A program made the translations under genes and the position numbers. The notes below the pieces were generated by a model that did no database searches, had not been told where the DNA came from, and was given only the letters and a program-made list of their open reading frames with translations. 56,718 bases of DNA from a virus. Its lineage: Duplodnaviria > Caudoviricetes. Positions 26,812-47,500 of the stretch are shown here, in pieces. Numbering within the stretch: position 1 is the stretch's first letter; each line of letters starts with the position of its first letter. The DNA is taken from positions 1 to 56,718 of IMG/VR virus record IMGVR_UViG_3300050343_000137. One strand, 5' to 3'.

Positions 26812-27148
26812 TGACAATAGCTGTATCTGATGTTATGACAATACTTTAATCAAGGAAAAATGCAACGGTGGGGTTGGAAGATACTTCTGCTGGTGAATTT
26901 TAATTAATTAAAATGGATATAGATGAACAAGCACCAATGCCTACTGAAGATGTATTTCATTTAATCCAGATAGGTACATTTTCAGGTACAGGAAGATACA
27001 AAAATATGCTTATCCAGCAATTGCAGAACAATTGGATAAACTATTCCACGATATAGATGGTGGACTTTTAGGAGAAGATGCTAAGACAGGTTCTTTGTAT
27101 CTTGCCTTAAAAGAAGTAAAAGACGACAATCCGAAACCGAGTGAATAA
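26811..27148 (+). CDS. Fibre assembly chaperone-like protein, frameshifted
   Basis: C-terminus AYPAIAEQLDKLFHDIDGG..VKDDNPKPSE*, paralogous to 32741-33035. Confidence 0.5.
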
Positions 27149-28050
27149 TGGTAAGTAAAATAAAAGTAGATGAAATAGAATCCAGCCAATCTGGTGGTTC
27201 TATTGCATATAATTCTTCACTAAAGTTAAAACAATATACTACTGCACAGATAGATGCTCTTACTGGTATGACTGAAGGTGAAATGGTATATGATACTGAA
27301 GCCAACAAAATTAAATTTTATATGGGAACTGCTTGGCATGTTGCTGGAGACCCACCAGTCGGCACAGCCGTAGGTGGAACTCAAACAACTTCTGGTGGAT
27401 ATAAGATACATGCTTTTACTTCCTCTACAACATTCGTTGTTTCTGACGCAGCACTTTCTTGCGACTATCTAGTAGTTGCAGGTGGAGGAGCTGGTGGAGC
27501 TAGAATAGGTGGAGGCGGAGGAGCTGGTGGATATTTAGCTGGTTCTGGAGTAACTTTTGGCATTGGAACCTATAATGTTGTTGTTGGTGGAGGAGGAGCA
27601 GGTACTGTTGCTAACAATGACCAAAGAGGTGGTAATGGTGATGATTCATCTATAAGTGGTACAGGTGTAAGCGTTACTGCAACTGGTGGTGGCGGTGGTG
27701 GCTCTGGTGATGATAGTAATAATAACGCTGAAGATGCTGGTGGTGGCGGCGGTTCTGGCGGTGGTGGCTCTTGGACAAATGGTGGTGGAGGAGCTGGTCA
27801 ATCTGGTCAAGGTAATAATGGTGGTAATGGTCACGCAAGACTAGCATCACACGCTGGTGGTGGCGGAGGAGGCAAAGGTTCTTCTGGTAATAATGGTGAA
27901 ACTAATAGCGGTGGTCATGGTGGCACAGGTTTACAAAGTAGTATATCTGGTACAAATACTTATTACGCAGGTGGTGGCGGAGGTGCTGTTATAACAAGTG
28001 GTTACACGAGAGGTTCTGCTGGAAGCGGCGGTGGTGGTATAGGAGCATAA
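27148..28050 (+). CDS. Glycine-rich virion protein (paralog 1)
   Basis: KVDEI/LKQYTT/MVYDT..FY.G.AW N-module, YKIHAFTSS, DYLVVAGGG, Gly-rich body. Confidence 0.8.
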   Translation: MVSKIKVDEIESSQSGGSIAYNSSLKLKQYTTAQIDALTGMTEGEMVYDTEANKIKFYMGTAWHVAGDPPVGTAVGGTQTTSGGYKIHAFTSSTTFVVSDAALSCDYLVVAGGGAGGARIGGGGGAGGYLAGSGVTFGIGTYNVVVGGGGAGTVANNDQRGGNGDDSSISGTGVSVTATGGGGGGSGDDSNNNAEDAGGGGGSGGGGSWTNGGGGAGQSGQGNNGGNGHARLASHAGGGGGGKGSSGNNGETNSGGHGGTGLQSSISGTNTYYAGGGGGAVITSGYTRGSAGSGGGGIGA

Positions 28051-28640
28051 TGGCAACACATAGATTAATACATGTAACAAGAACAGGTAATGATACCGAT
28101 GGTTTAGCAGAGTTTACTAACGCTGATACTGTCTTATTGCCTACACACTCTTCAGACCCTACAGGTACAACTGAAGGGGAGATGATATATAACTCTACAG
28201 ATGACAAAATTAAAATATACGATGGCTCAGCTTGGGTAGTTGTTGGTAATACAACTGAACAAATACAAGACATTATTGGCGGTATGGTCACAGGTAACAC
28301 AGAAACTAATGTAACTGTTACTTATGACGATAGCGATGGAACTTTAGATTTTGTTGTATCAGCAGATAGCACAGCTATTGTTGATGGTGATAGTGATACA
28401 AAAATACAAGTAGATGAAAATGGTTCTGATGAAGATAAGATTAGATATGATGTAGCAGGTACTGAAGTAGCTGTACAAGATGGAAGTGGTATGGCTTTTA
28501 CTACTAACTCTGGAACAGTACGACATAATCAGACACAAGCTGCAACTTATACTATTCCTACAGGAGAAGGTCAATTAATGGCTGGTCCAGTATCAATTAC
28601 TGGAACCATAACAAACAATGGGACATTGGTGATTATATAA
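28050..28640 (+). CDS. Fibre adaptor-like virion protein
   Basis: TEQIQDIIGGMV, VTYDDSDGTLDF, DGDSDTKIQV; ends AGPVSITGTITNNGTLVII. Confidence 0.7.
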   Translation: MATHRLIHVTRTGNDTDGLAEFTNADTVLLPTHSSDPTGTTEGEMIYNSTDDKIKIYDGSAWVVVGNTTEQIQDIIGGMVTGNTETNVTVTYDDSDGTLDFVVSADSTAIVDGDSDTKIQVDENGSDEDKIRYDVAGTEVAVQDGSGMAFTTNSGTVRHNQTQAATYTIPTGEGQLMAGPVSITGTITNNGTLVII

Positions 28641-28831
28641 TGGCTACTTTAAAAGTAAATACAATATCTAAAAGCTCTGGCAATAATGTTTCTATGCAAG
28701 ACCCTCTGAACTTAAAGTCATATACGACTACACAGAGAAACGCATTAACAAGTGCTGCTGGAGATATGATATATAACGAAACAGATAACAAAGTACAATT
28801 TTATAACGGCACAGCGTGGAATGATTTATAA
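28640..28831 (+). CDS. Stand-alone N-module of the glycine-rich paralog family
   Basis: 63 aa closely similar to the N-termini at 28831, 29822 and 30847 but with no Gly domain. Confidence 0.75.
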   Translation: MATLKVNTISKSSGNNVSMQDPLNLKSYTTTQRNALTSAAGDMIYNETDNKVQFYNGTAWNDL

Positions 28832-29822
28832 TGTCCACTCTCGAAACAAACTCTATAGGTAAATACTCTGGTAACAATGTATCAGTTGATGATAGTTTAA
28901 ATTTAAAGTCATATGACACAGCTGGTAGAAATGCACTTACATCACAAGCTGGTGATACGATATACAACTCTGACTACAGGAAAATAGATTTTTACAATGG
29001 TTCAGCTTGGGTAGCAAGTGGTGCTACTTCATGTTACAATAGAATATTTAATTATTGCTGGTGGAGGTAGTGGTGGAGGTTCTAATCAAACTGGCTCTGG
29101 TGGTGGTGGAGCTGGAGGTTATCGCAATTCTTATAACAGTGAAACTTCTGGTGCGAATAGTTCTAGTGAAACTGCTTTGACTGTTACTGATAATACAAAT
29201 CTTACTGTTACAGTTGGTGCTGGTGGACCAGCTAATACTACAAGTCAAGGTTATTCTACAAATGGATTTGATAGTGTATTTTCATCAATAACATCATTAG
29301 GTGGAGGTGCTTCTCATACAAACGCTGCTGCTAAAGCTGGTGGTTCTGGTGGTGGAGCAGGTTATCAATCATCATCTACTGCTCTTGGACAAGCAAATCA
29401 AGGTAGCAATGGTGGTGCAGGTAGAACTGGAAACCCATACGCAGGTGGTGGTGGTGGTGGAGCTGGTGCTGCTGGTTCTAAATGGTGGAAATGGTTTAGC
29501 TTCATCTATAACTAACACATCAGTCACAAGAGGTGGTGGAGGAGCTGCTGGTCATCAAGGCAGTATAACAGCAGGAACTGCTGGTACTGGTGGTGGAGGA
29601 ACACAAGGTGGAGGAAATGGTACTTCTTATACTGGTGGTGGTGGAGGTGGAACAGGTGGTAGTTCGCCGGGTAATGGAGGAAGTGGTGTCGTTATACTTA
29701 GTTATCCAAGTGATAAAACTATTTCGTTTGCTGGTGGAGCATCTAGTTCTGCTGGAGAACAAACAGTTGGTTCAAGAAAATATGTAGAAATACAAACAAG
29801 TGGAACAGTGAGCTTTGCATAA
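28831..29822 (+). CDS. Glycine-rich virion protein (paralog 2; two indels)
   Basis: ORFs 28831, 29018 and 29301 join: N-module, EYLIIAGGG, GGSGVVILSYP. Confidence 0.78.
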
Positions 29823-30841
29823 TGAGTGAATTAAAAACAAATAAGATTTCAACAAATGATACAAACAATGTAGCAATAGATACTGCACTTGGATTAAAGT
29901 CATACGATACAACTGGTAGAGATGCTTTAACATCTGTTGCTGGTGATATGATTTACAATACTACTGACAATAAATTAAATTATTACAATGGTTCATCTTG
30001 GGTAGAAACAAGTTCAACACCAGCTTTTACAATTTCTTATTTAGTAATAGCAGCTGGTGGTGGTTCTCCAGCAAGTCCTAATAGAGGTGGAGCTGGTGCT
30101 GGGGGTTATAGAAATAGTTATGCTTCTGAAACTTCTGGTGCTGGAAGTTCAACAGAAACACCATTATCTTTAGCATTATCTACAAACTATACAGTAACTG
30201 TAGGTGCAGGTGGTACAGGTACTGGGAATGATTCAGTATTTGCAACTATAACATCTGATGGTGGTGGTCAAGGTGGTTCAGCTGGTGGTTCTGGTGGTGG
30301 TGGTTATTACAATAATGGTTCTGGTGGTGCAGGTACAGCTAATCAAGGTAATGCTGGTGGTAATGTATCTGGTAATGGAAATCCTTATGGTACTGGTGGA
30401 GGTGGTGGAGCTGGAGGTGCTGGTGGTACTGGAGGTGGCTCATCTGTTGGTGCTGGTGGAGTTGGTTTAGAATCTTCTATAACAGGAACAGCAACTTATC
30501 GTGCAGGTGGTGGTGGTGGTTCATCTGAAGGTGGAGGTAGAGGTTCTGGTGGTAATGGTGGTGGAGGTATAGGTTCTAACGATAGAACTAGTGGTGGCAA
30601 CAATGGTGCAGGTGGTACTAATACAGGTGGTGGAGCTGGTGGTACTTCAGGTTATCAAGGAAGTAACAATATAGTTGCTAGAAATGGTGGAAGTGGAATA
30701 GTTATTATAAGATTTCCTTTTCAATATGGTATTACCATAGGAGCAGGATTAACTGCGACAGTAGGTGCTATAGGTAATAGCACTGATAAAATAGTAACAT
30801 TTACAGAAGGTACAGGAAATGTTAGTTTTACAGAAATATAA
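29822..30841 (+). CDS. Glycine-rich virion protein (paralog 3, intact)
   Basis: N-module, SYLVIAAGG, GGYRNSY.SETSG, GGSGIVIIRFP. Confidence 0.82.
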   Translation: MSELKTNKISTNDTNNVAIDTALGLKSYDTTGRDALTSVAGDMIYNTTDNKLNYYNGSSWVETSSTPAFTISYLVIAAGGGSPASPNRGGAGAGGYRNSYASETSGAGSSTETPLSLALSTNYTVTVGAGGTGTGNDSVFATITSDGGGQGGSAGGSGGGGYYNNGSGGAGTANQGNAGGNVSGNGNPYGTGGGGGAGGAGGTGGGSSVGAGGVGLESSITGTATYRAGGGGGSSEGGGRGSGGNGGGGIGSNDRTSGGNNGAGGTNTGGGAGGTSGYQGSNNIVARNGGSGIVIIRFPFQYGITIGAGLTATVGAIGNSTDKIVTFTEGTGNVSFTEI

Positions 30842-30846
30842 AAATA

Positions 30847-31930
30847 ATGAGTAGATTAAAAGTAGATAACATAGAAGCAAGAAGTGGTAATAACATTTCA
30901 ATGGATGACCCGTTGGCATTGAAATCTTATACAAACGCTCAAAGAGATGCTTTATCTAATCCTCAAGCTGGAGATACAATACAATTTACAACTCGGATGA
31001 AGGAACTATAGATTATTACAACGGAACAGCTTGGTTTTCGAGTTCTTCAAACACATTCGGTGTTTCAATTTCATATTTAGTTATTGCTGGTGGCGGTGGA
31101 GGTAGAGGTTCTACTGCATCTGGAGGTGGTGGAGGAGCTGGTGGTTACAGAAGCTCTTTTTCTACAGAAACTTCTGGTGGCGGTGGTTCTACTGAAACTC
31201 CTCTAACTGTTCTTTTTAATACAAATTTACTTGTAAAAGTTGGGGCAGGAGGACCTTCTGGCGTTAATGGAATTAATTCAGTATTTTCATCAATAACTTC
31301 TATAGGTGGTGGTGACGGTGGAGGTGTAGGTGCTGACGGTTCTGCACAATCGGCTGGTGACACTGGTGGCTCTGGCGGAGGTGGTCGTACAAATGCTGGC
31401 GCAGGAGGAGCAGGAACACCAGGTCAAGGTTATGATGGTGGTAATGCTAACTAGTACAGGAAACTTGCTAGCTGGTGGTGGTGGTGGCTGCTGGTTCTGT
31501 GGAGAAAGTCCAGCAACAGGTAATAATGATAATGGTGGTAATGGAGGTTCTGGAACAGCTTCTTCTATAACAGGGTCAAGCATTACAAGAGCTGGCGGAG
31601 GTGGTGGTGGTAACAATGCAGTTACTGTCGGCGGTACAGGTCAAGCAGGTGGTGGTAATGGTGCTTATGGAACATCAAGTCCTAATAATATTGGTCACAA
31701 TGCAACTGTTAACACAGGTAGTGGTGGCGGTGGTGGTGGTAACACTGGTACTTCAACTTCTGGTGGAGGTAATGGTGGCTCTGGAGTAGTAATTTTAAAT
31801 GGACTTACTTCTGATGCAACATATAGGAGCAACAAGAACTGGTCTTACAGATGGTGGTGTACAAACATCTGGTTCAGATTATAGTTATATAATCTTTACA
31901 CAAGGTACAGGAACAGTGAGCTTCTCATAA
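30847..31930 (+). CDS. Glycine-rich virion protein (paralog 4; several indels)
   Basis: MSRLKVDNIEARSGNNISMDDPLALKSY start, SYLVIAGGG, GGSGVVIL, ends GTGTVSFS*. Confidence 0.72.
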
Positions 31931-31980
31931 TGACAAATTTTTAAAAACCTCTATTAAGATAAACAAGATAGGAGAATAAT

Positions 31981-32385
31981 ATGGCTCATTACGCCTTTCT
32001 TAACGACAACAATATAGTAACTGAAGTTATTGTAGGTAAAGACGAGTCTGATACCGATACACTTCCAGAAGGCTTTGATAGCTGGGAAGCTTGGTATGCA
32101 GATTTTCGTGGACAAACTTGCAAAAGAACTTCTTACAACACTGTTGGCAATTCTCATACCTTAGATGGAACACCGTTCCGTGGTAATTATGCAGGAATCG
32201 GTTTCACTTATGATGAAGACGAAGATGCATTTTATCCAGCGAAACCATATGCTAGTTGGACACTTAGTGACGACTATGTATGGGAAGCTCCAAATGCTTA
32301 TCCAGATGATGGAGAAGCTTATATTTGGAACGAGAATGCTTATAACGGTGACAATTCTGAAGGTTGGGAATTAGTCAATGAGTAG
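31981..32385 (+). CDS. Partner protein of the Gly-rich fibres (MAHYA-type)
   Basis: MAHYAFLNDNNIVTEVIVG, RTSYN, FRGNYAGIG.TYD...DAFYP; AGGAG RBS. Confidence 0.75.
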   Translation: MAHYAFLNDNNIVTEVIVGKDESDTDTLPEGFDSWEAWYADFRGQTCKRTSYNTVGNSHTLDGTPFRGNYAGIGFTYDEDEDAFYPAKPYASWTLSDDYVWEAPNAYPDDGEAYIWNENAYNGDNSEGWELVNE

Positions 32386-32741
32386 TGAACTAAAAGTAGA
32401 TACAATATCAAACAAGTAGTAAAATATTAGTTTTAATTGCACAAGAATACAATTTTTCAGCATCAAATACTACTTTTATAAAAGCTGGAATTAAAGTTGT
32501 AAGAACTATTGGTGCTACAGCTACTGATATTAAAGAAACTTCTGGATTGACACTTAATTCTGGTTCTGGTAGTGCTGCTCAATTTGGTGGTATTTTACCA
32601 ATAACTATTTTAGATAGCCCATCAACTACATCTTCTGTAACTTATAAAACTCAACAGCATAAAGAAGCTACTGATACTTCAATATCTACTCAATCAGCAA
32701 GTGAAAAAAGTACAATAACATTAATTGAGATAGGTGCATAA
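32378..32741 (+). CDS. Short fibre protein, apparently internally deleted
   Basis: MSSELKVDTIS is joined out of frame to TSSKILVL...LDSPSTTSSVTYK...STITLIEIGA. Confidence 0.55.
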
Positions 32742-33035
32742 TGGCAATAACTAAATTGGAAGCTATAAAAAGTTTTAGAACCTAATGCTGAATTTGTTAT
32801 TTCTGGTGATGTCATAACAGAATGGCATAGTGAAGATATAACTCAACCTACTGATGAAGCTATTACTGCTGAACAAGAAAGATTACAAGGTTTATATGAC
32901 GGTGAAGAGTATAAAAGAAATAGAGCTAACGAGTATCCATCAATAGCAGACCAGCTTGATGACATTTTTCATAATGGACTTGATGCTTGGAAAGCTACAA
33001 TACAAACAACAAAAGATAAATACCCTAAGGAATAA
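32741..33035 (+). CDS. Fibre assembly chaperone-like protein (one indel)
   Basis: EPNAEFVI, QPTDEAI.AE..RL, YKRNRANEYPSIADQLD...KDKYPKE*. Confidence 0.65.
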
Positions 33036-33038
33036 TAA

Positions 33039-33419
33039 ATGAGTACAACATACGGAAATAGACCTATAAGAGTAAGATTTGAGAGTAATAACAGTGATGG
33101 TATTGCAGAGTTTTTTGACGGTTCTGAAACAGGAGCCTCTGGAATACAATTGCCTAAATTTTCTACAACAGAACGAAATGCATACTCTGCTTCTGCTGGT
33201 GAAATAATATACAATGAAACAACAAATAAAATTCAAATTTATAATGGTTCTGCTTGGGGTGATGTAGATACAGACACTGATACTACATTAACATTAATAG
33301 ATGAAGACAATATGAGTTCTGATTCGGCTACCTCTGTACCCTCGCAACAATCAGTAAAAGCGTATGTTGATGCAAATAAAGGTGCATCAATCGGAATAAT
33401 AATCGCATTAGGAGATTAA
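33039..33419 (+). CDS. Fibre adaptor-like virion protein
   Basis: RPIRV..GIAEF N-motif, DEDNMSSDSAT.VPSQQSVKAYVD, ends IIIALGD. Confidence 0.72.
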   Translation: MSTTYGNRPIRVRFESNNSDGIAEFFDGSETGASGIQLPKFSTTERNAYSASAGEIIYNETTNKIQIYNGSAWGDVDTDTDTTLTLIDEDNMSSDSATSVPSQQSVKAYVDANKGASIGIIIALGD

Positions 33420-33420
33420 A

Positions 33421-33750
33421 ATGGCAGAGACATTTCACTCAATCAATGCAGCGTTAGGAAATACAGCAGATGTTGCTGTACACACTAACAATACAAGCAA
33501 TAAACAAATAATCATATTATGTCAAGTAGCTAATGTTCACGGAACAAACTCTGCTGATGTCAATATAGATTATTATGACCAATCAGCTACTTCAGCTAAG
33601 GCATTAACATCTACTGTTGCTGTCCCTGCTGATTCAGCTATTAATCCAATAGGTGGAAAGTTAGTTCTTGAACCTAATGATGAATTTAGAGCTTGGGCTT
33701 CTGCTGCAAATGATTTAGAAATAGTTATAAGTTACATAGAAATATCATAG
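33421..33750 (+). CDS. Small beta-rich virion protein
   Basis: MAETF.., VANVHGTNSADV, KLVLEPND, SYIEIS; this type typically follows IALG-ending genes. Confidence 0.7.
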   Translation: MAETFHSINAALGNTADVAVHTNNTSNKQIIILCQVANVHGTNSADVNIDYYDQSATSAKALTSTVAVPADSAINPIGGKLVLEPNDEFRAWASAANDLEIVISYIEIS

Positions 33751-33756
33751 GTAATT

Positions 33757-34671
33757 ATGGGTAGAAGAAGATTCGGTCATATAGGTACCAAAGTAAAAGA
33801 TATTTCGCAAACTAACGCAAACAACTCTGGTATTTTTGATATTAATGAAGTAGCAATATTAGTAGCAGAAGATAAATGGAGAAAGTTCAACACACAAGAT
33901 ATAGAGTATCTAGTTATATCTGGTGGTGGAGGTTCTTGGAATGGAGGAGGAGCTGGTGGTTATTTTAAAACCAACACAGTATCTTTAACCTCTGGAGACA
34001 CATTTACAGTTACAGTTGGAAATGGTGGAGCTTCTCATTCAAACGGCGGAACATCCAAAATAGAAGATTCTAGTAGCAATGTCGTTGATAGCGGTAATGC
34101 AACTATGGCAGGTGGTGTTCGTGGTGGTTCTCCGGGTGGTGGAGGATTAAGCGGTAATGTAGGTTCTGGAGGTGGCTCTGGACAAGGTGGTGGTACAGGT
34201 TCTTTAGGTGGTAATGGTGGCTCTGGTACAAACTCTTATACAGCAGGTGGTGGAGCTGGTGGTGCTGTAGGTAACGGCAGTAATGGTGGAGGAGCTTGGA
34301 ATACTGGCGGTAATGGTGGTGGCGGAACAGGTGCATTTTCAACTTGGGCTTCTGGAGCTGGTGTAGGTGGTTCTGGTGGTAATTTTTGTGGTGGAGGTGC
34401 TGGAGGTTCTACTTCTGGTAATCATTCTAATGGAGGCTCTGGTGGTGGAGGTATGGGTAGACCCGATAACTCTGGTCACAACGGAGGAACAAACACAGGT
34501 GGTGGCGGTGGTGGAGAAGTTAATCTTGGGAACCAAGGAGGTTCTGGAATGGTATATGTTAGAATACCAAGTGATAAAACATTATCTGCTACAACTGGAA
34601 GCCCAACAGTAGGAACTGATTCCAACTATAGATATTATGGTTGGACTGGAAGTGGGAGTTTTACAGTATAA
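33757..34671 (+). CDS. Glycine-rich virion protein (different N-terminus)
   Basis: SGIFDINE, IEYLVISGGG, GGSGMVYVR, GSPT, YRYYGWTGSGSFTV. Confidence 0.8.
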   Translation: MGRRRFGHIGTKVKDISQTNANNSGIFDINEVAILVAEDKWRKFNTQDIEYLVISGGGGSWNGGGAGGYFKTNTVSLTSGDTFTVTVGNGGASHSNGGTSKIEDSSSNVVDSGNATMAGGVRGGSPGGGGLSGNVGSGGGSGQGGGTGSLGGNGGSGTNSYTAGGGAGGAVGNGSNGGGAWNTGGNGGGGTGAFSTWASGAGVGGSGGNFCGGGAGGSTSGNHSNGGSGGGGMGRPDNSGHNGGTNTGGGGGGEVNLGNQGGSGMVYVRIPSDKTLSATTGSPTVGTDSNYRYYGWTGSGSFTV

Positions 34672-35045
34672 TGGCACATTTTGCAGAATTAAATGAAGAA
34701 AATGTTGTTCTTAGAGTAACCGTCATTCATAACAATGAAATGTTAGATGAGGATGGTAATGAACAAGAATCAAATGGTGTTGAGTTTTTACAATCTTTGT
34801 ATGGAGAAGATACTATTTGGAAAAAATGCTCTTATAACACTTATGGTAACAAGTATTGGGTAATGGAAATGCAAGAAGATAATTTTGAAAAGAAAGTAGA
34901 AGGCGACCAATCTAAAGTTTTTAGAGGTAACTATCCAGCAGAAGATTATATTTACGATTCAGAAAATGATGTATTTGTAGCACCAGAACCCGATGAAGAT
35001 TATACATTAAACGAAACTACTTGGTTGTGGGAACAAGATGAATAA
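34671..35045 (+). CDS. Partner protein (MAHFAEL-type)
   Basis: MAHFAELNEENVVLRV, WKKCSYNT, FRGNYP; paralog of 31981. Confidence 0.75.
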   Translation: MAHFAELNEENVVLRVTVIHNNEMLDEDGNEQESNGVEFLQSLYGEDTIWKKCSYNTYGNKYWVMEMQEDNFEKKVEGDQSKVFRGNYPAEDYIYDSENDVFVAPEPDEDYTLNETTWLWEQDE

Positions 35046-46214: not shown

Positions 46215-46382
46215 ATGAACAAAAAATGTATTTTATGTGGCAAAAGACCACAATTAAATGAAAGATATAATTACTGTAACTCTTGTTTACATATTGAGTG
46301 CCGTATATGTGGAAAATGTTCTTTAGGAATGTTGGAGATATTAGATGGTAGAATATGTAATATATGTATTACTACAAAATAG
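46215..46382 (+). CDS. 55-aa double zinc-ribbon micro-protein
   Basis: CILC, CNSC, CRIC, CNIC. Confidence 0.5.
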   Translation: MNKKCILCGKRPQLNERYNYCNSCLHIECRICGKCSLGMLEILDGRICNICITTK

Positions 46383-46705
46383 AAATTTTAAGAGTAGTAG
46401 ATGGGGACACAGTAGATGTTAGAATTGATTTGGGTTTTAATGTGTGGCACAAATGTCGTGTTCGACTCATGGGCATTAATGCTCCAGAATCACGAACAAG
46501 AGATTTGGAAGAGAAAGCAAGAGGGCTGGCTGCAAAAGATTGGCTTATAAAAGAGTTAGAAAGTTCAGAAGTCCAAATGCAATCACACGGAACTGGAAAA
46601 TACGGTAGAGTTCTAGGAACTCTAATAATAGATGATGTAGATATCAACCAAAAGATGGTAGATAAAGGACACGCTATTTGGTATGACGGCGGTTCACGCT
46701 CATAA
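46364..46705 (+). CDS. Thermonuclease (SNase-like) family protein
   Basis: RVVDGDT...IDLGF, VRLMGINAPE, GKYGRVLG, INQKMV..GHA..YDG. Confidence 0.92.
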   Translation: MYYYKIEILRVVDGDTVDVRIDLGFNVWHKCRVRLMGINAPESRTRDLEEKARGLAAKDWLIKELESSEVQMQSHGTGKYGRVLGTLIIDDVDINQKMVDKGHAIWYDGGSRS

Positions 46706-46709
46706 AACT

Positions 46710-46950
46710 GGGGTGGTCTCACATTGAGAAGCTGCTTCAGTCTTTCGACACTCTAATCTTTTCGATTAGAAAGCTGATTATTTTTGCCCACTCATACCGT
46801 TATGAACGGGAATACCTACCGAATTTAATTAGCAGGTTTACTATCATCCCTTGCTCCCTAGCGATAGTCATGCTAGTTCACTTACTTTTTTAAAGCACAG
46901 TAGAGCTACTGAAAATAATCTTGGCTATCTCCGAAAGGAGGGACCACCCC
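46710..46950 (-). ncRNA. Candidate highly structured ncRNA (about 240 nt)
   Basis: Terminal helix GGGGUGGUC/GACCACCCC, long-range helix GAUUAUUUU/AAAAUAAUC, several internal hairpins; most G-U pairs favour the minus strand. Confidence 0.65.
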
Positions 46951-46956
46951 TAATAA

Positions 46957-47358
46957 TTAAAAGAGGTTATCTTCTTTCTCTTGAAGCATAATTTGTGCCA
47001 TAGTTATCCTTCTACTACCAAGTTTAGCAATTTCTTTTACCATCTCTATAAAAGCATTAAGCTGACCTGTTCTAAATTTATATAAAGGGTGCTTAGTTTT
47101 ACCTATATCTATACCACTTTCAAACTTCTTACAATACATTTCTATTTCTTTTGCTCTTGCATAGTATGCAACTGCTATTTCGTATAGAGAAGACACACCA
47201 GCTTCTACTGGTGATTTTGTTCTACCAAATAAAGTGTCTGTATATCCTTCTATTTCGTTTTCAAAGTTACGAATAGTTTCCATTGCATTGCCATGATGCT
47301 CAATGTCTTCAAACTTAACATGTAGCAAAGAGTTTTTTTTAGCTAAATTTTCACCCAT
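46957..47358 (-). CDS. Hypothetical protein (helical)
   Basis: 133 aa; YYARAKEIE, YKFRTGQL, LGSRRIT. Confidence 0.75.
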   Translation of the reverse strand: MGENLAKKNSLLHVKFEDIEHHGNAMETIRNFENEIEGYTDTLFGRTKSPVEAGVSSLYEIAVAYYARAKEIEMYCKKFESGIDIGKTKHPLYKFRTGQLNAFIEMVKEIAKLGSRRITMAQIMLQEKEDNLF

Positions 47359-47500
47359 TTACTTCTGCTTCTTTCATCATATGAGCATTTCCACAATCGT
47401 AACATATTTTATGAAGCTCATTTAAAACTCCAAGCCATATTCCGTCTGTCCCGGAATGTACTATATTTTCTTTAGTACCGCAACGTCCGCATTCATTCAT
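47351..47500 (-). CDS. 49-aa zinc-finger micro-protein
   Basis: AAGGAG RBS; MNECGRC...ICYDC. Confidence 0.6.
   Translation of the reverse strand: MNECGRCGTKENIVHSGTDGIWLGVLNELHKICYDCGNAHMMKEAEVNG

Follow-up and report, generated by a model that had tools for sequence, protein, structure and literature searches.

The window analysed here is the whole of a 56,718-nt (56.7 kb) Caudoviricetes virus record in IMG/VR (IMGVR_UViG_3300050343_000137; completeness rating 49%). As far as 46.7 kb its open reading frames (ORFs) point rightward, beyond 46.9 kb they point leftward, and the cumulative GC skew peaks and turns at 47 kb. At this turning point lies a structured RNA element, which takes up 241 of the 251 nt between two convergent genes. 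The features of the locus are as follows, where P1 is the helix that closes the RNA:

46364..46705 (+): gene of an SNase-type nuclease, 113 aa, convergent with the RNA (Pfam SNase, E = 1.8e-14; phrog_452)
46704..46707 (-): U-run UUUU, 2 nt past P1, partly overlapping the complement of the nuclease stop codon
46710..46950 (-): the whole structured RNA, 241 nt, 13 conserved helices, matched here by covariance models R1 and R2
46957..47358 (-): 133-aa ORF, directly upstream of the RNA on the same strand, with no Pfam or PHROG family

The RNA begins 6 nt past the stop codon of the 133-aa ORF. The start of that ORF is overlapped by the end of a 49-aa ORF (47351-47500, minus strand) that has two CxxC pairs and is zinc-ribbon-like. 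Elsewhere in the window, positions 27000-35000 combine raised G+C (0.41-0.44) with very high GC skew (0.29-0.39) and include ORFs matching phrog_2295 and tail-fibre families. Shine-Dalgarno (SD)-like motifs were seen at 20 of 39 rightward ORFs and at 2 of 7 leftward ones. These are small numbers, and the imbalance may reflect different translation signals in the two transcription blocks.

The element, its relatives and its neighbours

An earlier sequence-only reading of the window had described the region 46710-46950 as a multi-branched RNA that fills nearly the whole intergenic gap, is far more elaborate than a terminator and cannot be assigned to tRNA, tmRNA, RNase P or an intron. These points are supported. 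Both covariance models place their match at exactly those coordinates, on the minus strand, and the 13 conserved helices go far beyond a terminator. On either strand the sequence folds better than every one of 200 dinucleotide shuffles (z = -4.1 for minus, -4.7 for plus). A search of the whole window against Rfam 15 at gathering scores gave no match, in a test that took in RNase P RNA, group I and II introns, self-cleaving ribozymes, riboswitches, OLE, GOLLD, ROOL, phi29 pRNA, Y RNA, 6S and SRP. Relaxing the search to E up to 10 over positions 46500-47200 yielded only two chance-level matches, one scoring 14.7 bits (cut-off 39) and the other 5.2 bits (cut-off 55), and ARAGORN found no tRNA or tmRNA gene in the window. 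The element is a real structured RNA that matches no described RNA family.

A literature search found no description of the RNA. Fremin et al. (2023; PMC10690425) predicted 10,006 structured RNA motifs in IMG/VR viruses, which is the same data source and the same type of object, namely intergenic motifs with covariation in uncultured phages. The element may already be listed among them. With that qualification, I class it as a new family among the large orphan RNAs of phages.

Relatives were sought by searching viral contigs with both flanking proteins, after which the same element became visible beside the 133-aa gene. An alignment of the 133-aa family, used to scan metagenomes, then gave 80 loci. 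R1, the first covariance model, finds the RNA in each of the 52 marine loci whose sequence extends past the 133-aa gene, always on the strand of the gene and directly behind it. Three of the 80 loci end at a contig edge. The other 25, distant loci about 40% identical and with 57-68% G+C, have no match to the RNA, and their next ORF follows immediately; they look like those of soil actinophages. In all, 52 RNA matches, with 48 distinct sequences, come from marine viral and metagenome contigs. The stretch itself, whole or in part, occurs in 20 sequencing runs from 19 studies, and six of these runs are metatranscriptomes.

Further searches were made for relatives. The DNA pattern CYTCAGTCTNNCGACAC is present in 72 viral stretches, where the model's matches are confined to stretches whose link to the 133-aa gene was already established and one more (L149); the rest, considered as relatives of the RNA, are chance occurrences that the model rejects. 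An exact 19-mer of the window has no match in viral contigs, and the 133-aa family has none among 185,579 species genomes. A two-anchor RNA pattern gave a single match, again due to chance and rejected by the model. Neither a prophage copy nor a host emerged from the species-genome search and the two-anchor pattern.

The 133-aa protein is predicted to form three long helices (pLDDT 76). Its family comprises 57 clusters, none of them named. Foldseek returned nothing at E <= 1e-3, and VIA-align returned only generic three-helix bundles (Z <= 9.7), a result that is uninformative for long helices. A protein language model gave a weak lead to the small terminase (score 0.92, with Terminase_4 on 10% of one cluster). 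Pfam at E up to 10 matched none of 21 family members, to Terminase_4 or anything else, PF05119 has no match in three genomes, and in a complete relative the large terminase lies about 10 kb away. Judged by these sequence comparisons, a small-terminase identity is not supported. The relatives of the protein at about 40% identity come from the high-GC soil-like contigs (L217-L241) and from Gordonia and Brevibacterium phages (H4-H19), where they are annotated as hypothetical; the absence of the RNA pertains to the contigs, on which, rather than on the phage records, the RNA models were run.

The nuclease gene lies convergently downstream in 50 of the 51 RNA loci examined, and in the exception only 52 nt of sequence are left. 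Approached from the side of the nuclease, the RNA is present in only 6 of the 80 nuclease loci from the viral-contig search (L011, L019, L021-L023 and L044). The nuclease loci that have no RNA also have no 133-aa gene downstream, and it is therefore the 133-aa gene that the RNA tracks, not the nuclease. The linkage of the element to the 133-aa ORF is tight, and within the clade RNA, 133-aa gene and nuclease travel together. In many relatives (L012-L029) the nuclease is followed by a gene on its own strand whose start resembles a signal peptide and whose body varies strongly. Many of the contigs concerned break off within a few hundred bases, which suggests that the gene is hypervariable and breaks assemblies.

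A fold maintained through compensatory changes

The fold was derived by inspection and by duplex searches sequence by sequence, and was checked on an Infernal alignment of one subfamily. Several helices are wrongly placed in the MAFFT alignments (A1 and A4), and for this reason model R2, a hand-checked structure of 67 pairs, was built from that subfamily alignment. All members (52 matches, 48 distinct) were then realigned to R2. The result, alignment A6, is fitted to the model, and this inflates the percentage of paired positions. In the fold (features listed below, double changes being pairs changed on both sides), P1 joins the ends of the RNA, and P2, P3, PXb and PX stack towards a junction that bears P4, P5 and P6/P7. 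A side domain, P10, bears P8, with an A-rich loop, and P9, with a GNRA loop.

46942..46950 (-): P1, 5' strand, GGGGUGGUC; helix 99.1% paired, double changes in 8 of 9 pairs, 22 distinct strand pairs
46933..46941 (-): J1/2, CCUCCUUUC; unpaired in the consensus, UCCUUUC columns invariant
46924..46931 (-): P2, 5' strand, GAGA..GC, from the duplex search; double changes in 6 of 6 pairs, 33 distinct strand pairs
46912..46920 (-): P3, 5' strand, GAUUAUUUU; 100% paired, double changes in 5 of 6 pairs
46898..46906 (-): PXb and PX, 5' strands, GCUC, UA and CUG; helices 4 and 5
46884..46896 (-): P4 hairpin, GCUUU-AAA-AAAGU; helix 6, double changes in 4 of 5 pairs
46853..46881 (-): P5, with an invariant G-C plus U.G at its base, an internal loop and distal CUAGC/GCUAG; helices 7 and 8, double changes in 7 of 7 distal pairs
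46808..46850 (-): P6 (GGGA/UCCC) around the P7 hairpin (CCUGCU/GGUAGG); helices 9 and 10, double changes in 6 of 6 P7 pairs
46790..46799 (-): PX and PXb, 3' strands, CGG, UAU and GAGU, from pair counts
46776..46784 (-): P3, 3' strand, AAAAUAAUC, from the duplex search and pair counts
46734..46774 (-): P10 (GCUU/AAGC) around P8 (UCUAAUC-GAAAA-GAUUAGA) and P9 (GUC-GAAA-GAC); helices 11-13, double changes in 8 of 8 P8 pairs and 2 of 3 P9 pairs
46726..46732 (-): P2, 3' strand, GC.UCUC, from the duplex search and pair counts
46710..46718 (-): P1, 3' strand, GACCACCCC, from pair counts on A6

The covariation is strong. In A6, bearing in mind its fit to the model, 98.5% of the paired positions hold standard pairs, compared with 76.6% in shuffled alignments and 37-43% when the partners are slid by one to three columns. 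Double compensatory changes are found at 54 of the 67 pairs, against 38.9 after shuffling, and the covariation score of 0.559 (0.172 shuffled) was reached by none of 500 shuffles. Single columns tell the same story: one PXb/PX pair (columns 50/229) is CG in 17 sequences, GC in 14, AU in 13 and UA in 4, another (54/223) goes from CG to AU in two sequences, and the fourth pair of P6 is AU in 20, GC in 14 and CG in 6. Because A6 is fitted to the model, a control free of any alignment was also run, in which each strand of a helix was paired either with its cognate or with the corresponding strand of a relative. The cognate duplexes are the stronger ones in P1 (-17.4 vs -11.1 kcal/mol), P2 (-8.2 vs -4.4), P3 (-7.2 vs -3.2) and P10 (-5.7 vs -2.7). 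The 13-helix fold has been maintained through compensatory changes.

How much of this could be read from one sequence? Ten pairings had been put forward from the window alone, and six of them are conserved and covary. These are the closing helix, now P1, the long-range helix, now P3, and the pairings that have become P7, P8, P9 and the distal part of P5. Three other hairpins are alternatives peculiar to the window, because their bases belong to the covarying helices P2, PXb/PX and P6. Thus the GGAG of a supposed CUCC/GGAG hairpin lies in the 5' strand of P2; in place of CAGUA/UACUG, CUG pairs with CGG and GCUN with NAGU (PXb/PX); and in place of CCCGUUCAUA/UAUGAGUGGG, CCC pairs with the GGG of GCAAGGG (P6). 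The tenth pairing, ACUAUCG/UGAUAGU, would have made an H-type pseudoknot. It reaches -7.1 kcal/mol only in a sequence of the window's own type (L162), and in the closest relatives the value is -1.2 to -1.8 kcal/mol. Among the other long-range pairings examined in the relatives, none is supported by covariation or conserved as a pseudoknot.

A natural variant, 181 nt long (L211:1870-2050), has unrelated hairpins in place of the apical domain (PX and P4-P7) and retains P1, the UCCUUUC loop, P2, P3 and the P10/P8/P9 domain. Two possible non-canonical motifs can be read off the alignment: tandem G.A/A.G pairs in the internal loop of P5 (46853-46881) and an AGUA/GAA-like loop between P3 and PXb (46901-46910 with 46785-46789).

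The strand, guessed earlier to be minus with some reservation, is indeed minus. Paired cells of the alignment hold 286 G.U and only 6 A.C, and an excess of G.U argues for the minus strand, since each such pair becomes a mismatch when the plus strand is folded. The duplex is better on minus than on plus in 40 of 47 sequences for P2, 46 of 47 for PXb plus PX, and 47 of 47 for P10. P3, which is rich in A-U, is neutral in this respect or slightly better on plus. Finally, the loop of P9 is GAAA, GCAA, GUAA or GAGA across the relatives, and these are GNRA loops on the minus strand only.

Transcription and the 3' end

Contigs cover the element in all four metatranscriptome runs examined. Such contigs give neither the strand nor the true ends of a transcript, DNA carry-over is possible, and stretches without coverage or differences of depth between bins are not interpretable. 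Two contigs from two studies, at 46708-47166 and 46708-47103, join the 133-aa ORF to the element, each ending 2 nt past P1. Two more, at 46585-46941 and 46662-46940, join the end of the nuclease gene to the element. The first pair amounts to no more than a weak hint, and its common stop at 46708 may be a branch point of the assembly, since a variant diverges just before 46703. In that variant (contig X15, record 2, corresponding to window positions 46703-46895) the copy of the element differs by 15 substitutions and 3 indels, and the flank before 46703 is different. It therefore represents a second strain of the RNA family in the same sample.

Past P1 there is a run of at least four U's within 12 nt in 33 of the 48 distinct RNAs, and a run of three in 11 more. 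Three distinct sequences, of the L208/L127/L209 type, have no U-run. The P1 duplexes are GC-rich, 9-11 bp long, with energies of -14 to -20.6 kcal/mol. Most members thus show the GC-rich stem and U-tract of an intrinsic terminator, with U4-5 starting within 2 nt of the helix. What differs is the loop, which is 3-8 nt in an intrinsic terminator and about 220 nt here. A scan for a sigma-70-like promoter and a hairpin terminator around the element found neither; P1 would be missed by such a consensus scan because of the size of its loop.

I propose, tentatively and with a little less than even confidence, that the element is a transcribed minus-strand RNA of about 230-255 nt, the 3'-terminal domain of the leftward operon, which shares the operon's terminator and acts beyond termination. 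The RNA would be transcribed together with the 133-aa ORF. The GC-rich P1 and the U-run would end the transcript, with the entire folded domain serving as the "loop" of the terminator. The stable 3' domain might then act, after termination, as a protein-binding scaffold or a decoy, presenting single-stranded UCCUUUC (usually CCUCCUUUC) between P1 and P2. Further invariant unpaired bases lie in the junctions. I consider this explanation the most likely because of the U-run past P1 and the contigs that join ORF and element. There is evidence against it: a terminator loop of about 220 nt is unusual, some types have no U-run, and the U-run is in part the complement of the nuclease stop codon.

Bacterial sRNAs derived from 3' UTRs and sharing the terminator of their mRNA, such as CpxQ and SroC, are short and end in simple hairpin terminators. 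The element resembles them in its place directly after the last ORF of an operon, in its end at a GC-rich helix and U-run and in the RNA contigs that join it to the ORF. It differs in that the terminator helix encloses a 220-nt fold of 12 helices.

Possible roles of the RNA

The sequence UCCUUUC, unpaired in the internal loop between P1 and P2, is invariant. Its extended form is usually CCUCCUUUC, which equals the 3' tail of 16S rRNA, the anti-Shine-Dalgarno sequence, in agreement with the published literature. Six of the 48 distinct sequences deviate from it, five with CGUCC and one with ACUCC. SD-like motifs were found at 22 of 46 phage ORFs, or about half, and therefore the host probably uses SD-led initiation. 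The complement, GAAAGGAGG, has four matches in the window where 9.5 are expected, so it is not enriched, and a search for a bS21 gene in the window and four related contigs, records that may be incomplete, found none.

A conserved stretch of the CCUCCU type, identical to the 16S 3' tail, also characterizes OLE RNA, where it mimics the tail and binds ribosomal protein bS21 (PMC12054373). The likeness is broader, since both are large multi-helix noncoding RNAs with many invariant bases. OLE is an orphan structured RNA of Bacillota, about 600 nt in length, whereas the present RNA is about 240 nt, marine and encoded by a phage. The mimic in OLE pairs with an SD-like strand, and here, in the covarying model, the mimic is unpaired in an internal loop; the element matches neither OLE nor any other Rfam family in sequence or structure. 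By analogy the RNA might be a mimic of the 16S 3' tail, a folded decoy that captures either a host factor recognizing the tail (bS21, S1 or an enzyme that processes or cleaves 16S rRNA) or SD-led mRNAs, and so reprograms host translation. I regard this as improbable in that specific form. A simple sponge is disfavoured because of the six sequences that deviate in the CCUCC core, the lack of enrichment of the complement and the lack of a phage bS21 gene.

What else might account for a large RNA at this site? It could be a purely cis-acting 3' end, one that terminates the transcript, protects the mRNA from 3' exonucleases and keeps the converging early and late units apart, with no function in trans. 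The site suits such a role, lying exactly where the two transcription blocks converge and the GC skew switches at 47 kb, and the U-run past P1 and the contigs joining ORF and element are as expected of it. It is nonetheless unlikely, if well worth keeping in mind: 13 helices, invariant unpaired bases and a conserved GNRA loop exceed what termination or protection needs, and the remoter relatives of the 133-aa gene manage without any such element in soil-like contigs and, it seems, in actinophages. The terminator might also be a regulated one. A ligand, or a protein acting as a switch, would control P1 and hence antisense read-on into the nuclease and late genes, and P1 does close a large aptamer-like fold directly before the U-run. 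UCCUU could also pair with the invariant AAGGG, in competition with P6; both stretches are invariant, so that covariation gives no signal here. Set against this are the location of the element, 3' of the last ORF of the operon with the next gene convergent and no gene downstream on its own strand, which is not the position of a riboswitch, the want of a match to any riboswitch family and of an alternative structure with covariation support. I consider a regulated terminator quite improbable. A ribozyme, for example one that excises itself from the operon transcript just past the ORF, would fit the start of the element 6 nt after a stop codon, and catalytic RNAs are similar in size and conservation. 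It is very unlikely, given that no self-cleaving class, RNase P RNA or intron matched even at E up to 10, that no conserved pseudoknot was found and that RNA contigs run unbroken across the border of ORF and element. Nor is the arrangement that of an intron, as the 133-aa ORF stops 6 nt before P1 and the far side is the end of the convergent nuclease gene.

The two remaining explanations have, in my view, the slimmest of chances. Folds that are specific to one strand, contain G.T pairs and have stable GNA/GNRA-like loops are also met in single-strand origins of replication, and the element might by this precedent be a folded signal in single-stranded DNA, either for the priming of replication or as a packaging site. 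The peak of cumulative GC skew at the site would fit, as would the weak small-terminase lead for the 133-aa protein. The region is, however, present in metatranscriptome assemblies, a U-run follows P1, the terminase lead went unsupported (no Terminase_4 in 21 members or three genomes), and the large terminase of the complete relative is some 10 kb distant. The other explanation, that the RNA is the partner of the adjacent nuclease, came from the sequence-only reading, and the nearly constant presence of the nuclease downstream of the RNA speaks for it. The converse does not hold: the RNA is present at 6 of 80 nuclease loci, but behind the 133-aa gene at all 52 marine loci with sequence there. 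Furthermore, the nuclease of one locus without the RNA (L012) is 88% identical to that of the window, and the nuclease can be separated from the RNA by about 400 nt (L130) or 85 nt (L199 and L200).

RNAs that are large, intricately folded and rich in invariant bases are rare, and past cases proved to be ribozymes or protein-RNA machines. The present one packs 13 helices into about 240 nt, has an unusual wealth of covariation behind it and occurs commonly in marine viromes. Two of its traits are unusual, a closing helix that seemingly doubles as the terminator of an operon and an exposed copy of the anti-Shine-Dalgarno tail. A decoy of this kind that presents the tail would be the first for a virus, and should the mimic prove functional, it would become possible to test directly whether a phage controls host translation through an RNA decoy. 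Whatever its function, structure determination and the discovery of RNA-protein partnerships in uncultured ocean phages gain a clean new target in this RNA.
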